Below are positions 4,481 through 45,754 of a stretch of DNA of 52,130 nt, piece by piece. Source of the DNA: a virus (lineage: Duplodnaviria; Caudoviricetes); the IMG/VR virus record IMGVR_UViG_3300037247_000710, positions 1 to 52,130 of that record; one strand, given 5' to 3'. The notes beneath the pieces were generated by a model. That model was not told the origin of the DNA. It did no database searches and was given only the letters and a program-made list of their open reading frames with translations. Each line of letters begins with the position of its first letter. Within the stretch, counting starts at the first letter, position 1. The translations under genes were made by a program, and so were the position numbers.

Positions 4481-4624
4481 ATGGCGCGAGGGGGCTCCGT
4501 TGAAAAGGTAGCCCGTCGCGTCGCGGAAAAGGTAATGGATCGTCACATCAGGTCCCCGAGACCAAAAGGTCACGGGACGAAACCCCGTGGTGGTCGTAGC
4601 AGGGTGAGAGGAGGCGGCTACTAA
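4481..4624 (+). CDS. 47-aa basic ORF MARGGSVEKVARR..., standalone or -1 frameshift extension of the 3633 ORF
   Basis: Fills the gap exactly, TAA overlaps next ATG; begins with the same xxGG motif; poorly spaced RBS. Confidence 0.55.
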   Translation: MARGGSVEKVARRVAEKVMDRHIRSPRPKGHGTKPRGGRSRVRGGGY

Positions 4625-22010: not shown

Positions 22011-24071
22011 ATGGCTGACGAAGAAACACTTGCACCAGTACCGTGGTATTTAGATGAATCTATTTATGAACCTGAACCTGAGAAGGGACCGGGTACTGTC
22101 AATGACTGGATGAATCAACCCGACGTAACGGGTAAGAGATTTCCCATCGATCCGCAAATGACTGCGGAGCAACTCGACGTGCTGCCGGAGATGACGGATA
22201 CCGCAAAAATGATCGAAGGGTTTTCCGAACCGGGAGAGGGAGTAGACGGACCTATCATGGGAACGTTGAGGCGCATCGGTACCGAGTTGAAACAAGGATG
22301 GATGCAGATGTCAACGTCAGATCCCATGGAACTGGGGTCGCAACTACAGAATCGATTCCCGGACGTCGTTGAGGTACGACTTGCAATTAACCCTTCAGGC
22401 GACGGTTCCTACATCGCAGTTGCCAAAAATAAACTCACTGGTTACGAGGCTGTGATCAACAAACCGGGAATGAGCATGCAAGATGTGCTGCAGACTATCG
22501 GTCTGGTGGGTCAGTACTTGCCTGCTGCAAAAGTCACAACTGCAGTCAAAGCACTAGTCCCACGGATAGCTGTCGCAGCTACTGCCTCAGGAGCTACGGA
22601 GACTGCAATACAAGCGGGGCAGGCTGCTCTTGGAGGTGAGTTCGATCCTGAAGATGTCGCACTGGCTACAGCGTTCGCTGCGGTCCCGGAAATAATAGCT
22701 AAACCCGCAGTAGGATTAGCATTGAAAAGCAAAGAACTGCTTTCTAGACATATGCCTGAAGCAGTCCCGGCGTCGATTCGTAGTGCATTGACATGGGCGG
22801 AGAAGCAGGGATACAAAATTACATCATCAGATGCACTGAACGAATTTCTCACAGCCCCACAGAGAATCTTTCTCAAGATTACTGAACGTATTCCCGTGTT
22901 CGGTACGCAACGAATTAAAAATGCGCAGAAGGCACAACGTGCTGACGCTCTGAAGAGGATGGCAGACAAGTTTGATATTGATATCGAGAGTGATCTTGGA
23001 CAGGAAATTGCTGAAAGTTTTATAGATCGGATGAAGAATTGGCGTTTCTTTGGTAAGCACGCAGACCCAACAGATGAAATGCTAGATCGTGCTTTTAAGA
23101 AGGAGGCAGCAGGCATTATTGACAACACTCTCAAAAGAAAAATTAAGACTGCAACAGTAGAAAACGGGAACATCGATGATGGGTTGGTCGATATGGTTTT
23201 CAAAGGCAACAAGCCTCAGATTGTCAGGGACTTCATGAGAAAATTAACTCCTGAAGGGCAGGACGCAGCACGCCGAAGATTTATACAGGAAGGATTGGAG
23301 CGGACAGGGTACAAACCGGGACAACAAGTCGGCATCGCTAATCCGGGAGCCTTTGTAAAGTATCTCGATGAGCATGACAAGATAATAAAGGAACTCTTCC
23401 CCGACGTGATACACGATCCTAAGGCGTCGCATCTTTTTGCAGAGATGACTGGTGGACCCGGAATGGTACCGGCTCCAGCTTTGAAAGCGCAGCGGGAATA
23501 CCTAGAAGGGTTCAAAGAATTCCTCAGGATTACCGATGATGCAGAGAAAGCAAGTGCAGGTGCAGGCATGACTGCAGCGATGGCAGCGGGTGGAGGATTT
23601 TATCTCTTCGACATCATGGGAGGTGCGCTAGCCGGATTCGGTACTGCAATGGCAGGTCATGCAATGCAAAGTAGATTGGCTCGCAATTTGTTTCTACGTC
23701 TGAAACATTCCAAAGGCAATCCTGAGTTGCAGCAACAGATCATGAAGGAATTACGCCCGTTAATATTAGGAACGGGTAATAAGGCACTGCAGGAAGGCGT
23801 GGACATGCCCATGCTGAACATGTCTATGAGCCCTGACATGATACAGGAGGGGGCAGCAACTGGCGCGTCAGCGGCGATGCAGATACTGAGAGCAACCATG
23901 GGGACTGTCGGCGAAACTATTGGAGGTGTTCTGGGTAGCTCCCGTGGAGATCTAACGGAAGGTGGTATAAGTCCTACCGACATAGGTAGAGGTTCTCTTG
24001 TACAAGGTCCCGGAATGGAAATGCTGCGACGAGCTGCGGAATCTGCGCAGGGAATACCCCCGGAGGAATAA
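22011..24071 (+). CDS. Large internal virion/DNA-injection protein
   Basis: INKPGMSMQD motif followed by Ala-rich hydrophobic helices, as in podophage ejection proteins. Confidence 0.6.
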   Translation: MADEETLAPVPWYLDESIYEPEPEKGPGTVNDWMNQPDVTGKRFPIDPQMTAEQLDVLPEMTDTAKMIEGFSEPGEGVDGPIMGTLRRIGTELKQGWMQMSTSDPMELGSQLQNRFPDVVEVRLAINPSGDGSYIAVAKNKLTGYEAVINKPGMSMQDVLQTIGLVGQYLPAAKVTTAVKALVPRIAVAATASGATETAIQAGQAALGGEFDPEDVALATAFAAVPEIIAKPAVGLALKSKELLSRHMPEAVPASIRSALTWAEKQGYKITSSDALNEFLTAPQRIFLKITERIPVFGTQRIKNAQKAQRADALKRMADKFDIDIESDLGQEIAESFIDRMKNWRFFGKHADPTDEMLDRAFKKEAAGIIDNTLKRKIKTATVENGNIDDGLVDMVFKGNKPQIVRDFMRKLTPEGQDAARRRFIQEGLERTGYKPGQQVGIANPGAFVKYLDEHDKIIKELFPDVIHDPKASHLFAEMTGGPGMVPAPALKAQREYLEGFKEFLRITDDAEKASAGAGMTAAMAAGGGFYLFDIMGGALAGFGTAMAGHAMQSRLARNLFLRLKHSKGNPELQQQIMKELRPLILGTGNKALQEGVDMPMLNMSMSPDMIQEGAATGASAAMQILRATMGTVGETIGGVLGSSRGDLTEGGISPTDIGRGSLVQGPGMEMLRRAAESAQGIPPEE

Positions 24072-29003: not shown

Positions 29004-30419
29004 TTAGGCAATAAGCGCACTGGTTTTTCGAATTCTTCTCGCACCTTTGCGAGCTGTTCTTCGACGGTGCCGTACCTTTTTCTTGCGGTACCTGTCGAGG
29101 ACGAGCGTCGAGAACTCTTTCTTTTTCGCAATCGCTTCATAATACTCCTCTTCGATTGTGTCGCGTGCCAGCAGGAAGAAGTACTTCACCCAGACGGTAT
29201 TCTCCATGTGCAAGATGCGGAAGCGCGACTGTTCAAACGTAATGTGGCTGTGGTCCCAGCTGTACATCACGTAGGTATTTGCTGCGGACAGATCAAAACC
29301 AATTCCACTCTTCACTTGTAGCAGGACGAAGTCCACGTCGAACTGTCCGTCCCACTCGTGCTTGCCAGAGATTATTTTGTACGACCAGTTGAACTCGTCG
29401 AACTTCTCAGAGATGGATTCGATCTCGTGGGTAAAACGACAGCAGATGACTGCTTTTTCATTACCGAAACCTGACAGGAGCCCCATGAGCCTGTCCAGCT
29501 TCTCCGTACCGACGGGAATGACGATGCGTTTGCGTTTCTTCTCACCGGGAATGCGCTCCTGATGCAGGAGATGACCCCCGCACACTTGTTGTAGTTTTTG
29601 TATTAGGTGCATGGGTAGCGGCACATCAACTGTAATGTCTTCGAGGGTGACTTCCAGATCCTTTTTCAGCGTGTCGTAGATGTGCTGAGTGTTACGTTTA
29701 AGATCAAAGTACACTTTCTTCCTGCGTACCTTCACGGGCTTCTTGCCCATGGATATTCGTGCCTCATTGAACGTGATGCGGTAGCTATACGTGTGAATCT
29801 TCTCCATGATCTCATCGTCAAACCGGTAACCGACGATCACAGGATACGTTCGACCATCTCGACGCTGATGTTCTTCGTAAATGAGGTAACGCTCTTTGAA
29901 GTTGCCGTACGTCCCGAAGATTTCGTTCTTGCCAATGAAATCGAAAGTTGCCCAGTACTGCTCGAAACCTTGATCGATTGGTGTGCCTGTGAGTGCGAGC
30001 TTCCAATGGGCACGTTTGCCCAGCGTCCTGACGAATCGGGACTGGGCTGATCCCGGTTTCTTAATGTAGTGTGCTTCATCAGCGATCACCATCAGCGTGC
30101 CACCGTCCTTGACCCAATCCAGCGACCACTTGTACCACTGCTTGCGTAGCTGCAGATTCTTCACTGGCTCCTGATAGGTGACGATGTAGATGTCACAGTC
30201 CCAGTCGTTATCGAGATGCTCCTCGATCTGCTCCTCCCACGTGAGAACAGCTTTCTTCGGACAGATGATGACTAATACCTCCGGCTTGTGGTGATCCACC
30301 ACAGCCAGAGATATCAGACATTTCCCCGTGCGTTGTTCAGGAAAAAAAGCGAAGCCGCTGTGGGGGACTGCAGCAGCAACGGCTTCACTCTGATACGGAC
30401 GAAGTTCCGTCCGAATCAC
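29004..30419 (-). CDS. SNF2-like SF2 helicase
   Basis: LRPYQ, RTGKC, IADEAHYIK, LTGTP, QKLQQ, GIGFDL, QSRFRI motifs. Confidence 0.85.
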   Translation of the reverse strand: MIRTELRPYQSEAVAAAVPHSGFAFFPEQRTGKCLISLAVVDHHKPEVLVIICPKKAVLTWEEQIEEHLDNDWDCDIYIVTYQEPVKNLQLRKQWYKWSLDWVKDGGTLMVIADEAHYIKKPGSAQSRFVRTLGKRAHWKLALTGTPIDQGFEQYWATFDFIGKNEIFGTYGNFKERYLIYEEHQRRDGRTYPVIVGYRFDDEIMEKIHTYSYRITFNEARISMGKKPVKVRRKKVYFDLKRNTQHIYDTLKKDLEVTLEDITVDVPLPMHLIQKLQQVCGGHLLHQERIPGEKKRKRIVIPVGTEKLDRLMGLLSGFGNEKAVICCRFTHEIESISEKFDEFNWSYKIISGKHEWDGQFDVDFVLLQVKSGIGFDLSAANTYVMYSWDHSHITFEQSRFRILHMENTVWVKYFFLLARDTIEEEYYEAIAKKKEFSTLVLDRYRKKKVRHRRRTARKGARRIRKTSALIA

Positions 30420-32040: not shown

Positions 32041-33040
32041 TTTTCTTTCCTCGTGGTACGTATTCACTCTTCATTATGAAATCAGCATCGAGTCCGCGAA
32101 CTTCGGCCTCGCACAATGTACGAAACTCACAGGTGTTGCAATTAAAAGATGACATGCTGCGTGCGCAGCGTCCGTCCTCCCGCTTAGCCAGAATCTCCCC
32201 CGTGGTCTGCAGGAAATCATTGACTACCTCGATGATCATGTTGGTGCTGGGCTTGGGCAGGAACACGCGCTCGAAGAACGTGTCTTCCTTCCCTTCGAGC
32301 AACTCCAGCATGTCCACATATTTCTTATCGTCGAGACCTTCTCGTCGGACTACCTTTAAATAAGTGTACGGATCGCAATCCAAATTCTTGCGCTTCGATA
32401 GCTCACCACTCTTCAGTATCTCTGGTTCGGTAGGTGCCTTCGCACGTGCGTAGTCCCAGCACACACCATCGAGTGCCTCTTTCGGATTCTCCATGCCGTA
32501 CACCCACACGTACAACAGCAGCTGCAGTTCGGAGAACCGATCATCCGCAGTTGGAATAGCCTTCAGAAATTTATGGTCCACAATCCATCGACGGTCCTGC
32601 GGGTCGCGTGCAATTTTGTCGATGAAGCCAATGAATTTGACAGGTAACGCACCGCTGCCGAGTTTACTCAGATCGAACTCGACCTTGATCTCACTTGCTT
32701 CGTACGTCAGGGTGTCCCTGCGGTATTTGCGCAGGTAACCCTCGAAGATTTTGCCGCAGTCACCGATGATGTCCCCGTGCATGTCTTTCTCTTCTTCAAA
32801 GTATGCACCGAACTTATCAGCATACTCGTCGAGCACATCCCACGGATCATTGCCGTCGTAGCCTTTGATGATTTTCGAATTCACGTACGCATTGAGCATC
32901 TCGTGCAGGATTTCACCTCGCAACAGGCGCACGCCTTTGAACTTGCGCTTGATGCGTTTCTTGTACCTGTACTCCCACGCTTTCGGACAACGTCGGTAAG
33001 AACTAACTTCACTGAAACTAATATGGTCAAGCTGCGGCAC
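32030..33040 (-). CDS. PD-(D/E)xK exonuclease (Cas4/RecB-like)
   Basis: SFSEVSSYRRCP, G..LH, GFIDKI, IVDHK, QL..Y, C-terminal C..C..C; probable GTG start at 33040. Confidence 0.8.
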   Translation of the reverse strand: MPQLDHISFSEVSSYRRCPKAWEYRYKKRIKRKFKGVRLLRGEILHEMLNAYVNSKIIKGYDGNDPWDVLDEYADKFGAYFEEEKDMHGDIIGDCGKIFEGYLRKYRRDTLTYEASEIKVEFDLSKLGSGALPVKFIGFIDKIARDPQDRRWIVDHKFLKAIPTADDRFSELQLLLYVWVYGMENPKEALDGVCWDYARAKAPTEPEILKSGELSKRKNLDCDPYTYLKVVRREGLDDKKYVDMLELLEGKEDTFFERVFLPKPSTNMIIEVVNDFLQTTGEILAKREDGRCARSMSSFNCNTCEFRTLCEAEVRGLDADFIMKSEYVPRGKKNGS

Positions 33041-35531
33041 TGTACTTCTCCCCTTTGCCCCATGGTCCCAGCTCTGCTTCACCCTCCATGGGCACGCTGA
33101 GTTTGATTTTGAATGTGTCCATCAGCTTCGGTCGCTCTGCCATCTTCAGCATCTGTGGCACACACTCATCGATGTGTTCGTTCTTCACGATGGTCAGTAC
33201 TGAGTCGTGATGTTCGCCGACCAGTCGTACTTTCTTGCGCGAAAAAGTCTGGTGGATTTCGATCAGGATCATGGCTTTGTAGTCCCCGATCATTGCCTGC
33301 ACACCTGAGTTGATTGCCTGTCGCTCAGATTCCGACCGTACCTTCCTGTCCTTAGCATGGATGCCGGGGAGCCTACGCAACCGACCAGTCAGGCAACGCA
33401 CGTGACCATTTGCACGTGCAAGTTTTCTAGTTTTGCTGTGCCAGTCTTCCAGTCGGGAGTACAGTCGGAAGTATGCACGACGTGCATTCTTAGCCTCTTC
33501 CCTGCTGGGCTCCCAGCCATAATCCTTACGCGCCTGCTCGATGAATTTCTTCTCGTACATGCCGTAGATGAAACCGAAGTTAATAGCCTTGGCTCGCGTG
33601 CGTCCTTCATACCACCGTTTGTCCAATTCGATGCAAGCTGTGTGTCCTGCTTTCAACATCTCTTCTAATGCTATCGAGTAGGGCAACCACTTACTGGTCA
33701 GTTCCTCTGCTGTATTTTGCACGAGCATGGCGAATGCTCCTTGCGTACCAACTGCCAGTGTCTCGATCAGAGTGCGCCAGTGCACGTCAATACCGTCGGT
33801 GAAACAACGTCGCATTTCAGGGTCACGAGATAGATGTGCAGCGACCCTCATCTCTGCGGTGGCAATATCCAGTGCGCAGAGGGTCCAACCTGCGGGAGCA
33901 GTAACGAGGTTCCGAATCGATCCGTCCCGTGGAATAGGATGTAGAGGCGAAGAATATCTACCGGTGACAGTCCCGTGGATTTTGTAGTCGAAGTAGTACT
34001 TGTCTTCAATACGATACTTCTGCCATCCTTTAATATATGTGTTGAAAAATTTTCCTGCATTGCGATACTCCAAAATCTTCCTGACCACAGGTTTGCCGCT
34101 GATGCTAAGGAGCGCTTCTTCAGATGTGGAGGGTTTCTTTTTCTTGGTAAGAATTTTGCAGCGATATCCCAGCTCTTCATATAGGAGTTTTGCAATCTGC
34201 GCAGGACTGTCCCAGTTCAATTCGTAACCTGCGATCTCGTTCAGCTCTTCGCGCACTGTGATCTTCTTTGAGAGCAGCTCCATACCGACCTCTTTACGTG
34301 CTGCCGGATCGATGGTCAGACCCTCCATCTCGGCATCCTCCATCGCACGGGCTCCCGGCATCGTGAGCTTCCAGTAGAGACGATGGAGACCGGGCTGCTC
34401 CCGAAGCATCTTCTCGAAGAGTATGCCCAGCCTGAGTGTGTAGGTGGCATCCTTCCCGCAGTATTTGTAGTTCAGCATGGGCTTCTTGCTCTTGCCGATC
34501 TTCTCTTCCAGCGGGATGTCGTACTCAGGTTCATCGAGGTAAGTACGGCACAGACTGGTCAGGTCGTGGTGAAGGTTCTCATCGAGCACATGATGTGCGA
34601 GCATAGTGTCGAAGTGCAGGTGGAACGAGCCCCCAAACTGGCACCGCATCCACTTGTTATCAAACTTTCCATTCTGTGCGTACGTACGTTTGTTATCCCG
34701 ATGAGCAAGAAAAAACAGCAACTGCATCAGCCGACGCAAAGCATTACCGTGAGCGAAGGGGCTACTGGAAAATTGTTGATACTCAGGATGCATAAGACCG
34801 GGTATGACCCATGTTCTGTGGTCAAGAGCAATCCCAATTGCAGTGATGTAGCCATTCGGATCGAATGGGAAAAGCCCCGCTGTCTCGCAGTCAAATGCGA
34901 ATCTGGATGCTGCCTCAAACTCTCGGATAAAGGTGTCGAGGTTACCTTTGCGCACCACCGACCAGTTGACTGTGTCATCTCGCAAGCCGCTGTCTATGAG
35001 TCGAGCGAGTCGGGAGATATCGTCCTGAAGGCCGGGGAGCTTCGACGGATCGCGAAGAGTGTACGCTGGATGAAATATTGGCATCCCGATGTACGGGACT
35101 TTCGGATTATTAATGATCTCGCCATGGAATTGGTTGATCTTCGCTTTTCCACGAAACAACGTCTTCGTCGCAGGCACACCAGCAGTGACGACGTAACTGG
35201 GATTTAGTTCTGCGATTTCTTCATCGAGATAGTGACGGCACGCTTTGATTTCTGCTGCCGTGGGAGTTCTGTTATTCGGTGGGCGACATTTGACGAGGTT
35301 GGTAATGTAGGTGTTGTCGATCAGGTCGTTGCGTTTTAATTCGTGACGAAGTATTCGACCTGACTCACCGATGAAGGGGACACCCTTCCGATCTTCGTTA
35401 GCGCCCGGAGCTTCACCGATTACCATCACCTTAACGTCCTTCGGTTTGCGCGGCCCGTCACCTGCCATGCAGACCGTCCTCGCATTAGCGTGGAGACCGC
35501 AGTCGGTACAGTGGGGGTTTATACTCGCCAC
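33027..35531 (-). CDS. polA: Family A DNA polymerase with N-terminal family-4 uracil-DNA glycosylase domain and 3'-5' exonuclease
   Basis: CTDCGL..GEAPG.NED..G.PFIG.SG, NLVKCRPPNNRTP, FHPAY; ExoI DCET, ExoII NGKFD, ExoIII YCGKD; TVTGRYSS, KAINFGFIYG, RQAINS.VQ, HHDS. Confidence 0.92.
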   Translation of the reverse strand: MASINPHCTDCGLHANARTVCMAGDGPRKPKDVKVMVIGEAPGANEDRKGVPFIGESGRILRHELKRNDLIDNTYITNLVKCRPPNNRTPTAAEIKACRHYLDEEIAELNPSYVVTAGVPATKTLFRGKAKINQFHGEIINNPKVPYIGMPIFHPAYTLRDPSKLPGLQDDISRLARLIDSGLRDDTVNWSVVRKGNLDTFIREFEAASRFAFDCETAGLFPFDPNGYITAIGIALDHRTWVIPGLMHPEYQQFSSSPFAHGNALRRLMQLLFFLAHRDNKRTYAQNGKFDNKWMRCQFGGSFHLHFDTMLAHHVLDENLHHDLTSLCRTYLDEPEYDIPLEEKIGKSKKPMLNYKYCGKDATYTLRLGILFEKMLREQPGLHRLYWKLTMPGARAMEDAEMEGLTIDPAARKEVGMELLSKKITVREELNEIAGYELNWDSPAQIAKLLYEELGYRCKILTKKKKPSTSEEALLSISGKPVVRKILEYRNAGKFFNTYIKGWQKYRIEDKYYFDYKIHGTVTGRYSSPLHPIPRDGSIRNLVTAPAGWTLCALDIATAEMRVAAHLSRDPEMRRCFTDGIDVHWRTLIETLAVGTQGAFAMLVQNTAEELTSKWLPYSIALEEMLKAGHTACIELDKRWYEGRTRAKAINFGFIYGMYEKKFIEQARKDYGWEPSREEAKNARRAYFRLYSRLEDWHSKTRKLARANGHVRCLTGRLRRLPGIHAKDRKVRSESERQAINSGVQAMIGDYKAMILIEIHQTFSRKKVRLVGEHHDSVLTIVKNEHIDECVPQMLKMAERPKLMDTFKIKLSVPMEGEAELGPWGKGEKYSAAA

Positions 35532-35691: not shown

Positions 35692-37797
35692 ATGGCACAG
35701 AATAAAGCAGGGTTTGATCCAACGCAAACTGCGAAGTACTGGTTGGAAAAGAAAGTCTACACGGTACCGCTGAGAAGCAGATCAAAACGTCCAAAAACAA
35801 CGAATTGGCCCCACCTCCGACTGGTCGAGGACGACCTCAATAACGGTGCTTTCAAACCCGGAGACAACATCGGTGCGCTCTGGGGCGATGCTTCTGACCA
35901 TGCTACAGACGTTGATCTGGACATGGAGGAGGCGATCTGGGTAGCTGATTACATCCTCCCTGAGACCTTCATTTACGGGCGTACAGGCAAGGAACGTTCG
36001 CACTATGTATACAAGGTCATGGGTGCGCAAACGCGCAAGTGGCAGGTCCAAGAGCTGGGCACCATCATCGAGATCAGGTCCACGGGAGCCCAGTCAGTTA
36101 TCCCTCCATCCCGGCATCCTGAAGGTGGCATCTATTGCACTGACGAAGATGAAGACTTCACGCAGCTGACCAAGCTGGACCTTGAACGGTACGCTGAAGA
36201 AATTGCAGTCGCTGCAGTCTTCACTCGTCATTACCCGTCGGCAGGTTCGCGCCACGATTACGTGCACGCATGCACAGGTGCGCTCTGTCATCAGGAGTGG
36301 CCTGACGAAAAGATCGGGCGCGTCATGGAGGCAGTGCTCAACGTCATCCAAGATGAAGAAGACGAGATCAGTGATCGAGTGAATGCGGTGCGTAACACCG
36401 TCGAGCATCACAAGCTGGGCGACCGCACAAAAGGATTCACGTCACTCGAAGCATGGATGAGCATGCCGGTGATCGCAGCACTGCGCAGGTGGACGACCTC
36501 AGGCAAGATGGAAGGCAAGCTTGTGATGGCTCCGCCTAACCTGAAACCTGAACCATCACGGCTGACGTTCGATGAGTCTCTCTTAAAGGTGCCGGGACTG
36601 GTAGGTGAGATCACAACGTGGGCGAATCGCGAATCGTTTATTGACCAGCCTCTTTTCGGATTAGCGACCGGGCTCACATGCACTGCACTGGCAACATGCA
36701 ATCACTATCTCGTGGAAAGTTGGGACACACCGTTGCAACCATACTTAATGGTTACCGCACCGACCGGCGGAGGGAAAGACACTTGTCATCGTTCAGTTGC
36801 AAAGTTTGCAATTAAACTTGGTCTCGATGAAGCAGTGATCCAGCACTTCCAATCTTACTACGCGATGCTCGATCACTTAGGTGAAGAAGGAATAGGATGT
36901 TGGTTATGGGATGAAGCAGCTCGCTACATGTCCAGTGCGAAGAAACCCAGCTCGACAGATTTTCAAACGCTCAGTCACGTCATCTCACTTTACGGTGCAG
37001 CTAACAAATTTGTTCCCGGCGCACCGGGACGCAACCGAGCTATCCCTCCCCTTGATCATCCTTTCCTTGTAGTTCTCGCCACCGCTCAACCTGACATGCT
37101 GATGGACGCACTTACCAGCACAGCGCAGGAGACGGGCTTCGTAAATCGCTTCATACTTTTCGACACAGGCATCGAATACCGTGGTGTCAATCAGAGACGC
37201 AGTCACGTCTTCCCTTCTGCGATCAGTAAGCATGCGAAGCAGCTACGTGATCACGAACCGATGGACGGTGACTTCACCGACGTTAAGTTTGCAGACACGC
37301 GAACGTACAGTGCATTCCAAGAGTTCGAAGAAGTCTCGCGCCGTCGAGCGATGGGAGGTCAAGCGACATGGAGCCGAGCGAATCAGAACGCACTGATTAT
37401 GGCAGGCATTGCAGCGGTCGGTGCTGATGCACAGCGTCCTGTCATTGATTTCAATTTGTGCAAGTGGGCGATTCAACTCGTGTCATGGAGCAATGATTGC
37501 TGGGATGAAAAGCTACGCATGACTGCTGCGACTGACAGTTACACCGAGAAGGATTCATTCAAGATCGAACGCATCATCAACAACTCGCAAAAGTATGCCG
37601 AACAAAAAGCTAACTCCATCCCGCAACGTATGTTGTTACAACAAGGCTTCACCCCGCACAGTGTGATCACTCGAAACACACGAGGCATCGACCCGAAAAG
37701 ACGCACGCAAATTCTCGATGACCTGCACGAGGGCGGACTGATCGGTTCGACTGAAAAGAACGATCAGGTCGTCTACTTCCCGCACAAACCCAAATAG
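35692..37797 (+). CDS. Bifunctional primase-polymerase fused to helicase-like ATPase (DUF3987-like)
   Basis: P...SKRP, NIG, DVDLD, H.Y, EIRSTG.QSVIPPSRHP; C-terminal APTGGGKD, WDE, GFVNRF. Confidence 0.8.
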   Translation: MAQNKAGFDPTQTAKYWLEKKVYTVPLRSRSKRPKTTNWPHLRLVEDDLNNGAFKPGDNIGALWGDASDHATDVDLDMEEAIWVADYILPETFIYGRTGKERSHYVYKVMGAQTRKWQVQELGTIIEIRSTGAQSVIPPSRHPEGGIYCTDEDEDFTQLTKLDLERYAEEIAVAAVFTRHYPSAGSRHDYVHACTGALCHQEWPDEKIGRVMEAVLNVIQDEEDEISDRVNAVRNTVEHHKLGDRTKGFTSLEAWMSMPVIAALRRWTTSGKMEGKLVMAPPNLKPEPSRLTFDESLLKVPGLVGEITTWANRESFIDQPLFGLATGLTCTALATCNHYLVESWDTPLQPYLMVTAPTGGGKDTCHRSVAKFAIKLGLDEAVIQHFQSYYAMLDHLGEEGIGCWLWDEAARYMSSAKKPSSTDFQTLSHVISLYGAANKFVPGAPGRNRAIPPLDHPFLVVLATAQPDMLMDALTSTAQETGFVNRFILFDTGIEYRGVNQRRSHVFPSAISKHAKQLRDHEPMDGDFTDVKFADTRTYSAFQEFEEVSRRRAMGGQATWSRANQNALIMAGIAAVGADAQRPVIDFNLCKWAIQLVSWSNDCWDEKLRMTAATDSYTEKDSFKIERIINNSQKYAEQKANSIPQRMLLQQGFTPHSVITRNTRGIDPKRRTQILDDLHEGGLIGSTEKNDQVVYFPHKPK

Positions 37798-42526: not shown

Positions 42527-42555
42527 TTGACACGGGAGCGCTTTTGCTGTAAAGT
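42527..42555 (+). promoter_or_regulatory. sigma70-like promoter with operator half-site (42530-42549)
   Basis: TTGACA-N17-TAAAGT; ACACGGGAGCGCT; two TTxACATAAT boxes upstream. Confidence 0.7.
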
Positions 42556-42605
42556 GGTACTCCTTATATACGAACGGCGAAATCGCCCACAAACAGGAGC
42601 AAGAC

Positions 42606-44090
42606 ATGGTCACACTTTCCCCCTTCCAACAAGCGGTCATCGACTGGGTCACGGCGCACATCACCGTCCCCGGTGCCTTGGTCGTTGAAGCAGTCGCTGG
42701 CAGCGGCAAGACCTTCACCATCGTAAAGGCAGCGCAGCTGATCCCCGCATCGGCGAAGGCTGTCTTCCTCGCCTTCAATAAAAAGATCGCCACCGAGCTG
42801 GGCACCAAGCTGCCCGACCACGTCGAGAGCAAGACGCTCAACGCGCTGGGCTGGGCACTGTGCCGTTACCGTCTCGGCAAGCACATCACCGTCGAACGCA
42901 ACAAGACTCGCGACCTCATCCAGAAGCACCTGCCCGAAGAGGCGCGTGAGGTGATGGCGGAACTCCTGAATATCATCGCTAAGGCAAAGTCGCACGGGCT
43001 CATCCCGCCGCGCATGAAGACTCCCCGTGGCACGTACGAGGCAACCGACGAGAAGTGGCGCAACCTGATGGACCGCTACGACGTTGACCCCAACGGCTGC
43101 GGGGAGCCCACCTTCCTTACATGGGCGAACCTGATCCTCCGCAAGGGGCTCGAAGAGCAGAACGTCTTCGACTTCGATGACCAGCTGTACATGCCGGTCG
43201 CACTGGACCTGCCCGCATGGGGCTACGAGTGGATCATCATCGATGAGGCGCAAGACGTCAGCCACGTACAGCGCACCCTGCTTCGCAAGTTCCTGAAGAG
43301 CAACGGTAAGCTGATCGCAGTCGGCGATTCGCATCAAGCCATCTACGGATTCCGGGGCGCTGACTCCCAGTCGCTCGCCAACATTGGCCGAGTGTTCAAG
43401 GCCGATACGCTGCCGCTCTCGATCAGCTACCGGTGCCCGCGCAAGGTCGTTGAGATCGCACAGCAGTTCGTGCCGCACATCACCTGCAGCGACACTGCCG
43501 AAGACGGCGAGATCCTGAACCCCACTGACTGGGCAGTCGAATCCTTCAGCGACGACGACCTCGTCGTATCGCGCACGACCGCACCGCTGATCGAGCTTGC
43601 ATACAAGTGCATCAGCGAAGGCAAGAAGGTCCACGTCTTAGGCCGGGAGATCGGCAAAGGTCTGATCAACGTCATCAAGAAGGCAGGCGGCAAACGCATC
43701 TCGACAATCGAAGAGCTGCGCCCGAAGCTGGACCGCTGGCAGGATCGCATGGTCCGCAAGGCCGAGAAGGATGAGGCGAAGATCGCAGCGATTCAGGACA
43801 AGGTGGATTGCATCAACATCCTGAGCGCAGGGCTCGACACGATCAAGCAGCTGATCGATGCCATCGAAGCGATCTTCAGCAACGATGCATCGGGAACCAT
43901 ACTGGCAACCATCCACAAGGCCAAAGGTCTTGAGGCACCGCGAGTATTCATCCTGAACCCGGACAGCATGCCCTCACGTTGGGCACGGCAAGAATGGCAG
44001 ATGGAACAGGAGCGCAACCTGCAGTACGTCGCAGTGACCCGAGCGCTTGAGACTCTCGTTTACTTACCACTGGAGGTGGTCGGGGCATAA
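42606..44090 (+). CDS. UvrD/Rep-like SF1 helicase
   Basis: AVAGSGKT, LAFNK, IDEAQD, VGD..QAIYGFRGA, SYRCP, TIHKAKGLE, YVAVTRA. Confidence 0.9.
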   Translation: MVTLSPFQQAVIDWVTAHITVPGALVVEAVAGSGKTFTIVKAAQLIPASAKAVFLAFNKKIATELGTKLPDHVESKTLNALGWALCRYRLGKHITVERNKTRDLIQKHLPEEAREVMAELLNIIAKAKSHGLIPPRMKTPRGTYEATDEKWRNLMDRYDVDPNGCGEPTFLTWANLILRKGLEEQNVFDFDDQLYMPVALDLPAWGYEWIIIDEAQDVSHVQRTLLRKFLKSNGKLIAVGDSHQAIYGFRGADSQSLANIGRVFKADTLPLSISYRCPRKVVEIAQQFVPHITCSDTAEDGEILNPTDWAVESFSDDDLVVSRTTAPLIELAYKCISEGKKVHVLGREIGKGLINVIKKAGGKRISTIEELRPKLDRWQDRMVRKAEKDEAKIAAIQDKVDCINILSAGLDTIKQLIDAIEAIFSNDASGTILATIHKAKGLEAPRVFILNPDSMPSRWARQEWQMEQERNLQYVAVTRALETLVYLPLEVVGA

Positions 44091-44119
44091 GCCTCGACTC
44101 CCCGCAAAGGAGCACGACA

Positions 44120-44287
44120 ATGCCCGAACTGAAAGTAACGCACGTCAGCACGCGACCGCTCACTGATCGCGAGATCAAGGATCTGCAGTACCAGCAGGAT
44201 CACTGCTACAGCTGCGACACACCGTACGAAGGCAAGTATCAGATCTGCCCTCGTCCGACATGCAACAGTCACCAAGAGATTGGATAG
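44120..44287 (+). CDS. 55-aa zinc-ribbon protein; not in ORF track
   Basis: AGGAGCACGAC leader; CYSC...CPRPTC. Confidence 0.7.
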   Translation: MPELKVTHVSTRPLTDREIKDLQYQQDHCYSCDTPYEGKYQICPRPTCNSHQEIG

Positions 44288-44297
44288 GAGCACGACA

Positions 44298-44489
44298 ATG
44301 CCAAAAGCAAAAGTAATCAAGACAGTGAAATGCATCCCGACGTGGAAGGCTGCAGCCAGCATCTACATCACGGCGATAGTTAACGGTACCCCTGAGGGTC
44401 AACAGGCCGGGATCGCAGGTGTCCACGAGATGGCGGAGCACCTTGACCGCATCAACGAGGAAAACAAGAGTGACACTGACGAAGGCTGA
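44298..44489 (+). CDS. Hypothetical protein (63 aa)
   Basis: AGGAGCACGAC leader; start MPKAKV. Confidence 0.7.
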   Translation: MPKAKVIKTVKCIPTWKAAASIYITAIVNGTPEGQQAGIAGVHEMAEHLDRINEENKSDTDEG

Positions 44490-44521
44490 ATGCCCGAAAG
44501 CGCCGAGGGGCGCTATGTCAC
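44470..44521 (+). ncRNA. Type I hammerhead ribozyme
   Basis: GTGACA-CTGACGA-AGGC tgaat GCCC-GAAA-GCGCC gagg GGCGC-TA-TGTCAC: complete core, stems I-III; predicted cut after A44515. Confidence 0.8.
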
Positions 44522-44540
44522 AAAAGCAAAGGAGCACGAC

Positions 44541-44996
44541 ATGTTAAAAGTTTATCACTATGCAGGACTGACCGACGACGAGCGCAAGCAAGTCAACGGC
44601 AACAACGGTGGCTGGGATTGTAGCCCGCGCATTCGGCGCTATGCCGCAATCACGATGTCCGCCAAACCTGAAGCAGTAATCGATGGACTGATCGAGCGCG
44701 AGTATCACCTCGTCGCAGTTGTCGATTCTGGTGACCTCGAAGATGGTTTCCGGTACACCAATCACATCGATATGGACTGGACTTTGAATAGTCTGGTTAC
44801 CCCGGTCCCCGGTGCAAGCAAGCGCAGCACCTCAGTCGGCGACATCATCGTACGTGACGGTGCTACTTACATCGTCGCAGGTAGCGGGTTCACACTGCTG
44901 GGCGAGATCCCGAAGCCACGACCGCTGGGGCGTATCGAGTATCTGAAAATTGTTCCCGGCTACGACGGCGAACCTGACATCGAGGTGCAAACATGA
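44541..44996 (+). CDS. YodL-like protein
   Basis: AGGAGCACGAC leader; Y.LVA.V...LE..F..TN...RSTSVGDII...Y.V...GF. Confidence 0.7.
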   Translation: MLKVYHYAGLTDDERKQVNGNNGGWDCSPRIRRYAAITMSAKPEAVIDGLIEREYHLVAVVDSGDLEDGFRYTNHIDMDWTLNSLVTPVPGASKRSTSVGDIIVRDGATYIVAGSGFTLLGEIPKPRPLGRIEYLKIVPGYDGEPDIEVQT

Positions 44997-45259
44997 ATGA
45001 GGAAATCCAAGTCGAAGTGTTGACCGCTGACTATCAGCGAAACGGCGTCGGTGGTGAGGGATTTTACGCGGCAACGATACGCTGCGACAACGAATCCCTG
45101 CTGGCGACGATAGCCTACAAGAATGACGGCGAGACGTTCGATGACTGCAGCTGCAGAGTAGTTGACCCGCTGGACCTGACCTGCCACTACCGTGGTGACC
45201 GCATCGGAGCGGCACTAATTCCGAAACTTACGAAGTATCTAGAGGAGCACAACAAATGA
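44993..45259 (+). CDS. Hypothetical protein
   Basis: RBS GAGGT; ATGA coupling. Confidence 0.7.
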   Translation: MNEEIQVEVLTADYQRNGVGGEGFYAATIRCDNESLLATIAYKNDGETFDDCSCRVVDPLDLTCHYRGDRIGAALIPKLTKYLEEHNK

Positions 45260-45696
45260 AACGCTACAGCGTAAAGTTAGTCCGCAGGCTGGATCAGTCT
45301 GCAGTCGTGTCGGTTGACGCCGATAACGCGAGTGATGCCGCGCACAAGGGCATCGAAATGACCCCGCTATTCTGGCGAACGGACGTAACCGAATCGACGT
45401 ACTACGAGTCGGTCAAAGAGATCGTCGAACCGACGCCCGAGCCCGAGTCGAAAGAGAAAAACATCACGACTAAGATCTACACTTACGACGTGGAACTGGA
45501 CGTGAGTTACGACGGTGGTGACCTCGTGTCATCGTGTTTTGTCAGCAAGCAAAGAGGGCGCACAAAGTACTGCAGCTCGCTGGCATTGCTGGATGATCAA
45601 GGTACGATTGAAGGCGACAACTGGGGCGACGTGATCCAAGTGCCGGATAAAGTAGTTAAGAAAATCTACGCATGGGCGGAGGAAAACGGCTACTGA
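45256..45696 (+). CDS. Hypothetical protein
   Basis: AGGAGCACAAC leader; last gene before terminator. Confidence 0.7.
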   Translation: MKRYSVKLVRRLDQSAVVSVDADNASDAAHKGIEMTPLFWRTDVTESTYYESVKEIVEPTPEPESKEKNITTKIYTYDVELDVSYDGGDLVSSCFVSKQRGRTKYCSSLALLDDQGTIEGDNWGDVIQVPDKVVKKIYAWAEENGY

Positions 45697-45724
45697 TAAA
45701 TCCGCGCAGACTTTGGGCAATTGG

Positions 45725-45754
45725 AGACGCGTGCAAGTTGGCGCGTCTTTTTTT
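45725..45754 (+). terminator. Rho-independent terminator
   Basis: AGACGCGT-loop-GCGCGTCT followed by T-run. Confidence 0.75.

Follow-up and report, generated by a model that had tools for sequence, protein, structure and literature searches.

A conserved type I hammerhead motif with unpaired positions 10.1/11.1 at the end of a small gene in a phage replication-module operon

Thousands of hammerhead ribozymes have been described from phages and prophages, and their role there is still called an open question (PMC6155905; PMC6765202). The question can be put at a single locus of IMG/VR record IMGVR_UViG_3300037247_000710, a tailed-phage genome fragment estimated to be 82% complete. At positions 44470-44521 (plus strand) of this record, a 52-nucleotide (nt) type I hammerhead motif lies between two genes of an operon, its 5' part shared with the end of the upstream gene. 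Does the operon RNA cut itself here, and does the stop codon that falls inside the element take part in this? We analysed the whole 52,130-base stretch of the record, referred to below as the window. Judging from sequence comparison, we think it probable that the element is a working self-cleaving ribozyme, which would split the RNA of an operon running from a helicase gene to a terminator just upstream of the next gene.

Read directly, the element consists of GTGACA / CTGACGA / A GGC TGAAT GCC C / GAA / AGCGCC GAGG GGCGCT / A / TGTCAC. Its parts, and the open reading frame (ORF) that runs into it, are as follows, with two related loci (L124 and L001, introduced below) given for comparison.

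44298-44489, plus strand: orfA, a small ORF of 63 codons plus stop, starting at ATG 44298, with a weak match to PHROG 22670 (E 0.002)
44470-44475, plus strand: stem I, 5' strand GUGACA, seen in the sequence, the fold and the descriptor match, and the same in L124 and L001
44476-44482, plus strand: catalytic core C3-A9, CUGACGA, position 7 (free) being C; no changes in L124 and L001
44483-44495, plus strand: stem II and loop II, with A10.1/C11.1 unpaired, three base pairs GGC/GCC and the loop UGAAU
44496-44498, plus strand: core G12 A13 A14, invariant in L124 and L001
44499-44514, plus strand: stem III hairpin, A15.1-U16.1 plus five base pairs with the loop GAGG, seen in the sequence and the fold
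44515-44516, plus strand: predicted cleavage site, after A17 (44515) and before U1.1 (44516), placed by its position in the hammerhead consensus
44516-44521, plus strand: stem I, 3' strand UGUCAC, with which the downstream RNA would start (5'-OH)

In stem II, A 44483 stands opposite C 44495, GGC 44484-44486 pairs with GCC 44492-44494, and the loop TGAAT occupies 44487-44491. In stem III, AGCGCC 44499-44504 pairs with GGCGCT 44509-44514, with A44499-U44514 as the A15.1-U16.1 pair. Stem I has six Watson-Crick pairs, stem II three, and stem III six, beginning with A15.1-U16.1. The order of the helices fits the type I topology, and all core positions (C3 U4 G5 A6 N7 G8 A9 and G12 A13 A14) match the consensus. 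The triplet at the predicted cut is CUA, with A44515 as the base other than G that is required at H17. Both the minimum free energy (MFE) fold and the centroid fold of the 52-mer are exactly the three-way junction (-20.5 kcal/mol, z -3.1, with 1 of 200 shuffles equally good), and this fold is unchanged when 70 nt of upstream context are added. Every part listed by an earlier sequence-only reading of this DNA (the stems, the core, GAAA, CUA and the position of the stop codon) proved correct on direct reading. Its assignment to the type I hammerheads also holds, given the order, core and fold and the conservation with compensatory changes in related phages.

A descriptor that asked for at least 4 base pairs in stem I and at least 3 each in stems II and III, with a mismatch permitted at 10.1, matched once when both strands of the window were scanned, at 44470-44521. 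The same descriptor gave 16 loose matches in 2000 first-order Markov random windows, none as good as the real site. By our own estimate from extrapolated pair probabilities, the chance rate of such a match might be about 6e-5 per window, which means that a few chance matches are expected over very many windows, and comparative evidence is therefore required. The bare linear core motif is unremarkable in the window, where it matches 7 times and 8.2 matches are expected. Loose descriptors of the type II and type III topologies yielded minimal-stem matches alone, inside genes at 22898-23018 and 29935-30036, and we judged these to be chance.

Homologues of the downstream gene were found in two viral contigs and 12 metagenome loci, and the 140 bases upstream of each were compared. 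L124, in which the downstream protein is 87% identical, carries the same element, the sole difference being loop III, which is GAAG rather than GAGG. In L001 (80% identical; the same contig as L089, L094 and L125), the element reads GTGACA CTGACGA T TCC TAAAT GGA T GAA AGCCCCA GTGG TGGGGCT A TGTCAC. Across this family (the window, L124 and L001), DNA identity over the region is about 78%. The core and stem I show no changes (11 strictly conserved core bases, A15.1-U16.1 and H17), while 7 changes fall in the 13 bases of stem II and loop II. Stem II of L001 (UCC/GGA) has two of its three pairs changed on both sides (G-C to U-A and G-C to C-G), and stem III has one of seven changed on both sides (G-C to C-G) and one extra A-U pair. 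In total, 3 of 17 pairs are changed on both sides, all of them compensated and none broken, with the limit that the family amounts to three stored sequences in two clades, such that the covariation comes from one divergence event and 18 of 500 shuffles reach its score. Controls with slid partners gave 0-1 such pairs. Two orfA codons that lie in stem II alter the protein between the window and L001 (EG to DS) while the pairing is retained, and this argues for selection on the RNA rather than the peptide. DNA contigs from four other sequencing runs contain further variants which, counting the best-supported differences only, differ solely in their loops. The 24 runs listed for the stretch include no RNA run. 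In run X2, a DNA contig carries a variant of the window type with TAAAT in loop II, so that TAA replaces TGA as the stop at an unchanged position, and variants of the L001 type have GCGG in loop III, read directly in run X6. Loop III thus ranges over GAGG, GAAG, GTGG and GCGG, and the stems are maintained.

Among 30 helicase-anchored viral loci, the descriptor located the element in the L001 contig only, and the covariance model described below (R1) found none in L095, L096, L098, L099, L126 and L127. Homologues of orfA that lack the hammerhead are present in L095, L098 and L099, and their ends differ. No match was obtained with blastn of 44100-45300 against a phage GenBank collection. An orfA protein pattern gave 33 matches in viral contigs with no relative among them, and an alignment pattern of the downstream gene gave 69 matches in genome contigs, likewise with no relatives. 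A family-specific DNA pattern, run on viral and genome contigs, returned the known L001 contig, an unrelated canonical hammerhead (L136) and five stretches without stems (L137-L141).

The window element also has counterparts in unrelated phages. A pattern made from its core and inner stem I found 91 stretches in viral contigs, and after filtering with the descriptor there were clear three-helix hammerheads in L010, L022 (three), L025 (two), L030, L034, L037, L055 and L088, to which L136 was added later. These canonical compact type I members in unrelated viral contigs are located at:

L010, 4118-4171, minus strand
L022, 3128-3177, 3963-4024 and 8483-8533
L025, 349-403 and 941-994
L030, 6688-6745
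L034, 782-834, minus strand
L037, 9701-9752
L055, 237-286
L088, 9349-9415 and 8310-8378, both minus strand
L136, about 4500-4600, minus strand

Many members of the class share the stem II geometry of the window, with four positions and a 5-nt loop U-N-A-A-U. From 7 of the 11 canonical sequences, all from other phage contigs and without the window or its relatives, we built the covariance model R1; L022 3963-4024, L022 8483-8533, L037 and L088 were left out because of MAFFT misalignment and differing stem lengths. On the window, R1 scored the site at 44.3 bits (E about 5e-10 on a rough calibration) and the next best at 10.8 bits (E 1.3), a score inflated by the choice of the training set with a window-derived pattern, which makes it partly circular. 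When 15 class matches were aligned to R1, 96.2% of the cells paired, 13 of 16 pairs were changed on both sides, and none of 500 shuffles reached the covariation score. The 15.1-16.1 pair is A-U in all 15. Counted over whole records, R1 finds one copy in the window and one in the L001 record, and 3, 2, 1 and 1 copies in four other phage records. The statement of the sequence-only reading that hammerheads occur in phages agrees with the literature (PMC3088659) and with this compact class at phage gene junctions.

Among the candidates of the class search, an A+T-rich one, identical in eight loci (L009, L026, L027, L035, L038, L042, L047 and L077), was dropped for its 2-base-pair stem II; with 5 base pairs in stem I and 4 in stem III, it is either a degenerate hammerhead or a chance match in a conserved gene. 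A candidate in L015 (3 base pairs in stem III) and an overlapping alternative match in L022 were dropped as well. Separately, we observed that loop II of class members is frequently U-N-A-A-U on a four-position stem II and that AAA directly follows stem I in 7 of 14. Together, these features may point to a tertiary contact of the class that has not been recognised.

The gene context gives a second line of comparison. The unit in which the element lies is about 3.2 kb long and comprises, in order, the helicase gene, a 55-codon ORF, orfA, the hammerhead, a 151-codon gene, an 88-codon ORF, a 146-codon ORF and the terminator, with the following features outside the hammerhead.

42527-42555, plus strand: promoter-like site TTGACA-17-TAAAGT from a consensus scan, a weak call, as the number of sites in the region equals the chance expectation; a possible start of the transcription unit
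42606-44090, plus strand: gene for a UvrD-like superfamily 1 DNA helicase, first in the unit (PF00580, E 2e-22; PHROG 1967 'DNA helicase', E 8e-101)
44529-44540, plus strand: Shine-Dalgarno box AGGAGCACGAC, which precedes the downstream gene and recurs before several genes of the module
44541-44996, plus strand: the downstream gene, 151 codons; in other phages, most of its homologues come with a promoter of their own
45723-45750, plus strand: strong terminator-like hairpin of 10 pairs with a T run; the unit's last ORF (45256-45696) ends just before it

The start codon ATG 44541 lies 25 nt past the predicted cut at 44515/44516, and the sequence-only reading was right to place the cut at this distance and within an operon. 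Its term "early polycistron" holds as far as the operon goes; "early" is only inferred from the neighbouring genes for the helicase, a primase (35692-37797) and a DNA polymerase (minus strand, 33027-35531), which the record encodes along with a virion structural protein and a tape-measure-like protein. The name "YodL-like" for the downstream product was not borne out, as searches with the 151-codon protein gave no match in Pfam (E up to 10) or in PHROGs (E up to 0.01). A second candidate start, ATG 44490, directly follows the orfA stop (TGAATG) and opens a 168-codon frame continuous with the downstream gene. It is probably unused, and we take 44541 as the start because the matching frame in L001 stops after 13 codons.

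In related phages, the same downstream gene is reached in other ways. Of the 12 metagenome loci, eight (L128-L135) have a T-run terminator and a promoter-like site TTGACA/TTGCAA-N17-TATAAT ahead of the homologue, two (L126 and L127) have the homologue directly behind the helicase gene and lack the hammerhead, and two (L124 and L125) have orfA and the hammerhead. The element is a conserved example inside a replication-module operon, and it takes precisely the position that a promoter for the same gene has in related phages, which supports the idea of a ribozyme that makes a new mRNA end. Since eight of the 12 homologues have their own promoter, a 5' end made by a ribozyme at this point would be a sensible functional equivalent. 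As side observations on these loci, L128-L135 and L002 share the arrangement of a conserved terminator and then a promoter-like TTGACA/TTGCAA-N17-TATAAT, with a conserved stretch 'ttaacataat' just upstream, and in L002 the gene order is inverted, with the homologue of the downstream gene before the helicase.

What the sequences show is the motif, its conservation and covariation, its class and its context, and cleavage, its rate with 10.1/11.1 unpaired and every consequence downstream are inferred. Once the 52 nt are free of ribosomes, the three-way junction would fold and the RNA would cut itself between A44515 and U44516. The upstream RNA would retain the complete orfA with its stop codon, and its 3' end, carrying a 2',3'-cyclic phosphate, would be the G+C-rich hairpin of stem III. 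On the other side of the cut, the RNA would begin with a 5'-OH and a 25-nt leader before the ATG. The upstream and downstream parts of the operon would thereby become independent in stability and translation, and the downstream gene would gain a short private leader of the kind that its homologues elsewhere obtain from their own promoter. A 5'-OH end evades the 5'-monophosphate-dependent RNase E, yet it is a target of RNase J1 in the case of glmS, and whether it stabilises or destabilises the RNA depends on the RNases of the host.

Several observations weigh against a working ribozyme, in addition to the partial circularity of the R1 score and the small size of the family. One concerns the pair G10.1-C11.1, which closes stem II in the consensus and is the most conserved stem pair after A15.1-U16.1 (PMC3088659). 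It is absent from all three members of the family, being A.C in the window and L124 and U.U in L001, and among the 15 class members it is G-C in the other 12. The sequence-only reading had recorded the A-C at the base of stem II, which is indeed present and is no mere detail, as it departs from this highly conserved consensus pair. Natural hammerheads with a U10.1-U11.1 mismatch are known, U.U being the most active of the mispairs, and the others are less active according to the wording of the same paper (PMC3088659). The A.C of the window may lower activity and is probably worse than the U.U of L001. We treated the mispair as a variant feature that does not exclude the element from type I, since published U.U members have been accepted (PMC3088659). 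That 10.1/11.1 is unpaired in both clades, in different forms, reflects either tolerated decay or tuning.

Other points on this side concern the fold. Stem II has merely 3 base pairs. Stem I is invariant and is hence without covariation support inside the family. Tertiary contacts, such as a bulge in stem I or a pseudoknot with loop II, make natural hammerheads fast at cellular Mg2+, and we did not find a contact of this kind in the window element, the flanks showing no complement to loop II by eye. When 39 nt of downstream sequence are added, the MFE fold retains stems II and III, and both strands of stem I pair elsewhere; this 121-nt alternative fold has -27.8 kcal/mol, an ensemble frequency of 0.04 and z -1.1. 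A switch in which the 3' strand of stem I pairs with the start-codon region, as in the 121-nt fold, was considered and rejected, as the complement is missing in L001.

The search with hammerhead models that the sequence-only reading had proposed as a check gave a divided answer. Rfam models at the gathering score had no match in the whole window, Rfam hammerhead models at E up to 10 had none in 44350-44650, and RF00163 had none on the whole 52,130-base virus record, while R1 recognised the site. As controls, nine loci with canonical phage hammerheads were searched in the same way and gave no matches at the gathering score, and L055 (301 bases) gave none at E up to 10. Because these canonical controls were missed too, the silence of Rfam says little. 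The Rfam models are insensitive to the compact type I class with a long helix III, and the class seems to be under-annotated in viral metagenomes, as Rfam 15 missed all of the compact phage type I hammerheads that were tried.

The mispair could also mean that the element is a dead or nearly dead relic, which lost its activity at 10.1/11.1 and is kept as a structured spacer, for example as a protective 3' hairpin or a barrier between cistrons. This we consider unlikely. Such a relic would be in keeping with 10.1/11.1, which none of the three family members pairs and all 12 others have as G-C, with the tertiary contact that was not found, and with the competing fold in longer downstream context. 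Inactive hammerhead-like RNAs with core changes have also been reported, one of them from a Xanthomonas phage (PMC3088659). However, the core, A15.1-U16.1 and H17 are unchanged over about 22% DNA divergence, over which stem II and loop II acquired their 7 changes in 13 bases with the pairs always kept, and a spacer that served only as a hairpin would not require the core. In addition, the U.U at 10.1/11.1 is compatible with activity (PMC3088659).

The overlap with orfA raises the question of whether ribosomes control the ribozyme. The orfA product ends in ...SDTDEG, and its stop codon, TGA 44487-44489, forms the first three bases of loop II, so that the 5' half of the hammerhead doubles as the last six codons and the stop of orfA. 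This 20-nt overlap is conserved in the family, and the stop begins at hammerhead base 18, in loop II, in all three members, as UAA in L001. For comparison, we located the upstream stop-to-stop frames of at least 45 codons for each element. In 9 of the 11 hammerheads outside the family, the last base of the upstream stop coincides with the first hammerhead base or precedes it by at most 3 nt, and in the other two the stop lies inside the element, from base 4 in L025 and possibly from base 8 in L022, where the UGA of the core would serve as the stop. A Shine-Dalgarno-like site and a start codon follow within 8-35 nt in 9 of 14 hammerheads. As a rule, the class thus leaves little room from a stop to the next ribosome site, and the family of the window is its extreme case. 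Moreover, the loop that supplies the stop (UGAAU or UAAAU) is also found where the upstream frame ends before the ribozyme (L055 and L136). The stop in loop II thus looks like a by-product of the class-typical U-R-A-A-U loop rather than a designed coupling device. On our preferred reading of a plain self-cleaving element, orfA would simply read into the ribozyme until this loop supplies a stop.

The sequence-only reading had gone further and proposed that ribosomes reaching the stop couple cleavage to translation. The stop is indeed in loop II throughout the family, and the loop is class-typical with stops abutting the ribozyme in 9 of 11 cases, which weakens the proposal. Stated fully, it holds that the hammerhead is active, that ribosomes translating or terminating on orfA control its folding, and that cleavage reports the translation of orfA. 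In one version, the weak stem II, with 3 base pairs and unpaired 10.1/11.1, is tuned for this gating, and cutting takes place only when orfA is untranslated. A ribosome at a stop codon covers about 12-15 nt further downstream, and one at the orfA stop would reach stem III. It is consistent with gating that in all three family members, and in one more DNA variant, the ORF spans the 5' strand of stem I, the core and the 5' strand of stem II and has its stop in loop II, and that 10.1/11.1 is unpaired in two forms (A.C and U.U), though one synonymous change in the window could pair it. On the other side, the stop-supplying loop is a class feature, shared by elements whose upstream ORF has already ended when the ribozyme begins; a terminating ribosome would occlude class members in general, and not the orfA arrangement in particular; and the overlap is explicable by an ORF that reads into an adjacent ribozyme. 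Ribosome gating is plausible but unsupported, and we give it a lower probability than the relic. If true, a catalytic RNA would make the physical separation and fate of a cistron depend on whether the one before it is being translated, and this would offer a direct handle on what phage hammerheads are for. The family provides a natural test pair (A.C versus U.U at 10.1/11.1), as well as the ORF overlap, for asking whether translation and self-cleavage compete.

Finally, a chance resemblance without RNA function in a coding/intergenic stretch is very improbable, since the common linear core motif, the few matches expected scan-wide from our own estimate and the silence of Rfam are set against homologues whose pair changes are compensated around an invariant core, a score of 44.3 bits with a model of unrelated phage hammerheads, and a stem II length, loop II and gene-junction position that are all as in the class.

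As a self-cleaving element, the motif has its closest known counterparts in the type I hammerheads of phages and prophages (PMC3088659; PMC6155905; PMC6765202). They have the same core and helix order, a helix III that is longer than in eukaryotic type I hammerheads, the same setting between polycistronic genes beside small ORFs of unknown function, and the same proposed role of turning long transcripts into gene-length RNAs. Hammerheads have been found flanking genes in prophages, polycistronic constructs of about 2 kb were cut in vitro, and the processing of long phage transcripts was proposed (PMC3088659). The window element differs from these in lacking the 10.1/11.1 pair, in having its 5' 20 nt translated, and in being present as a single copy rather than in a cluster. 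Natural U10.1-U11.1 variants (PMC3088659) have their like in L001, which also has U.U, whereas the window and L124 differ in having A.C. We found no description of A.C at this position in the passages of PMC3088659 that were consulted, and its supplements may hold A.C variants or relatives. Likewise, the literature consulted did not describe any phage hammerhead in which an ORF ends, and the same supplements may hold such cases. Phage hammerheads, their intergenic placement and the U.U variant are thus already published, and what is new is the family with 10.1/11.1 unpaired as A.C or U.U, the conserved 20-nt coding overlap, and the argument from the context of the promoter-bearing homologues.

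Two other systems are instructive for comparison. The intergenic type I hammerhead of a fusarivirus also lies between two ORFs, with its cut 7 nt before the start of ORF2 (PMC13725137). Its cleaved 5' end has been confirmed in vivo, and the role proposed for it is cap-independent translation initiation (PMC13725137). In contrast to this eukaryotic RNA virus, the window comes from a DNA phage with a bacterial host, and its downstream gene has an ordinary Shine-Dalgarno site. In glmS and in twister ribozymes engineered into 3' untranslated regions, self-cleavage within an mRNA alters the stability of the products via cellular RNases (PMC6765202). The glmS ribozyme is a metabolite-dependent element of the 5' untranslated region and belongs to another ribozyme class, and the window element does not imply a ligand.

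One further observation was made on the module as a whole. A fixed box, GGAGCACGAC, lies 0-2 nt before successive start codons on the plus strand, at 42596, 44109, 44287, 44531, 45244, 46527 and 47554. Allowing at most one mismatch, it has 12 matches compared to 4.4 expected, five of which are exact, and it precedes the homologous genes in L001, L124 and L130-L132 too. This box may be a shared sequence for translation initiation or a recombination boundary.

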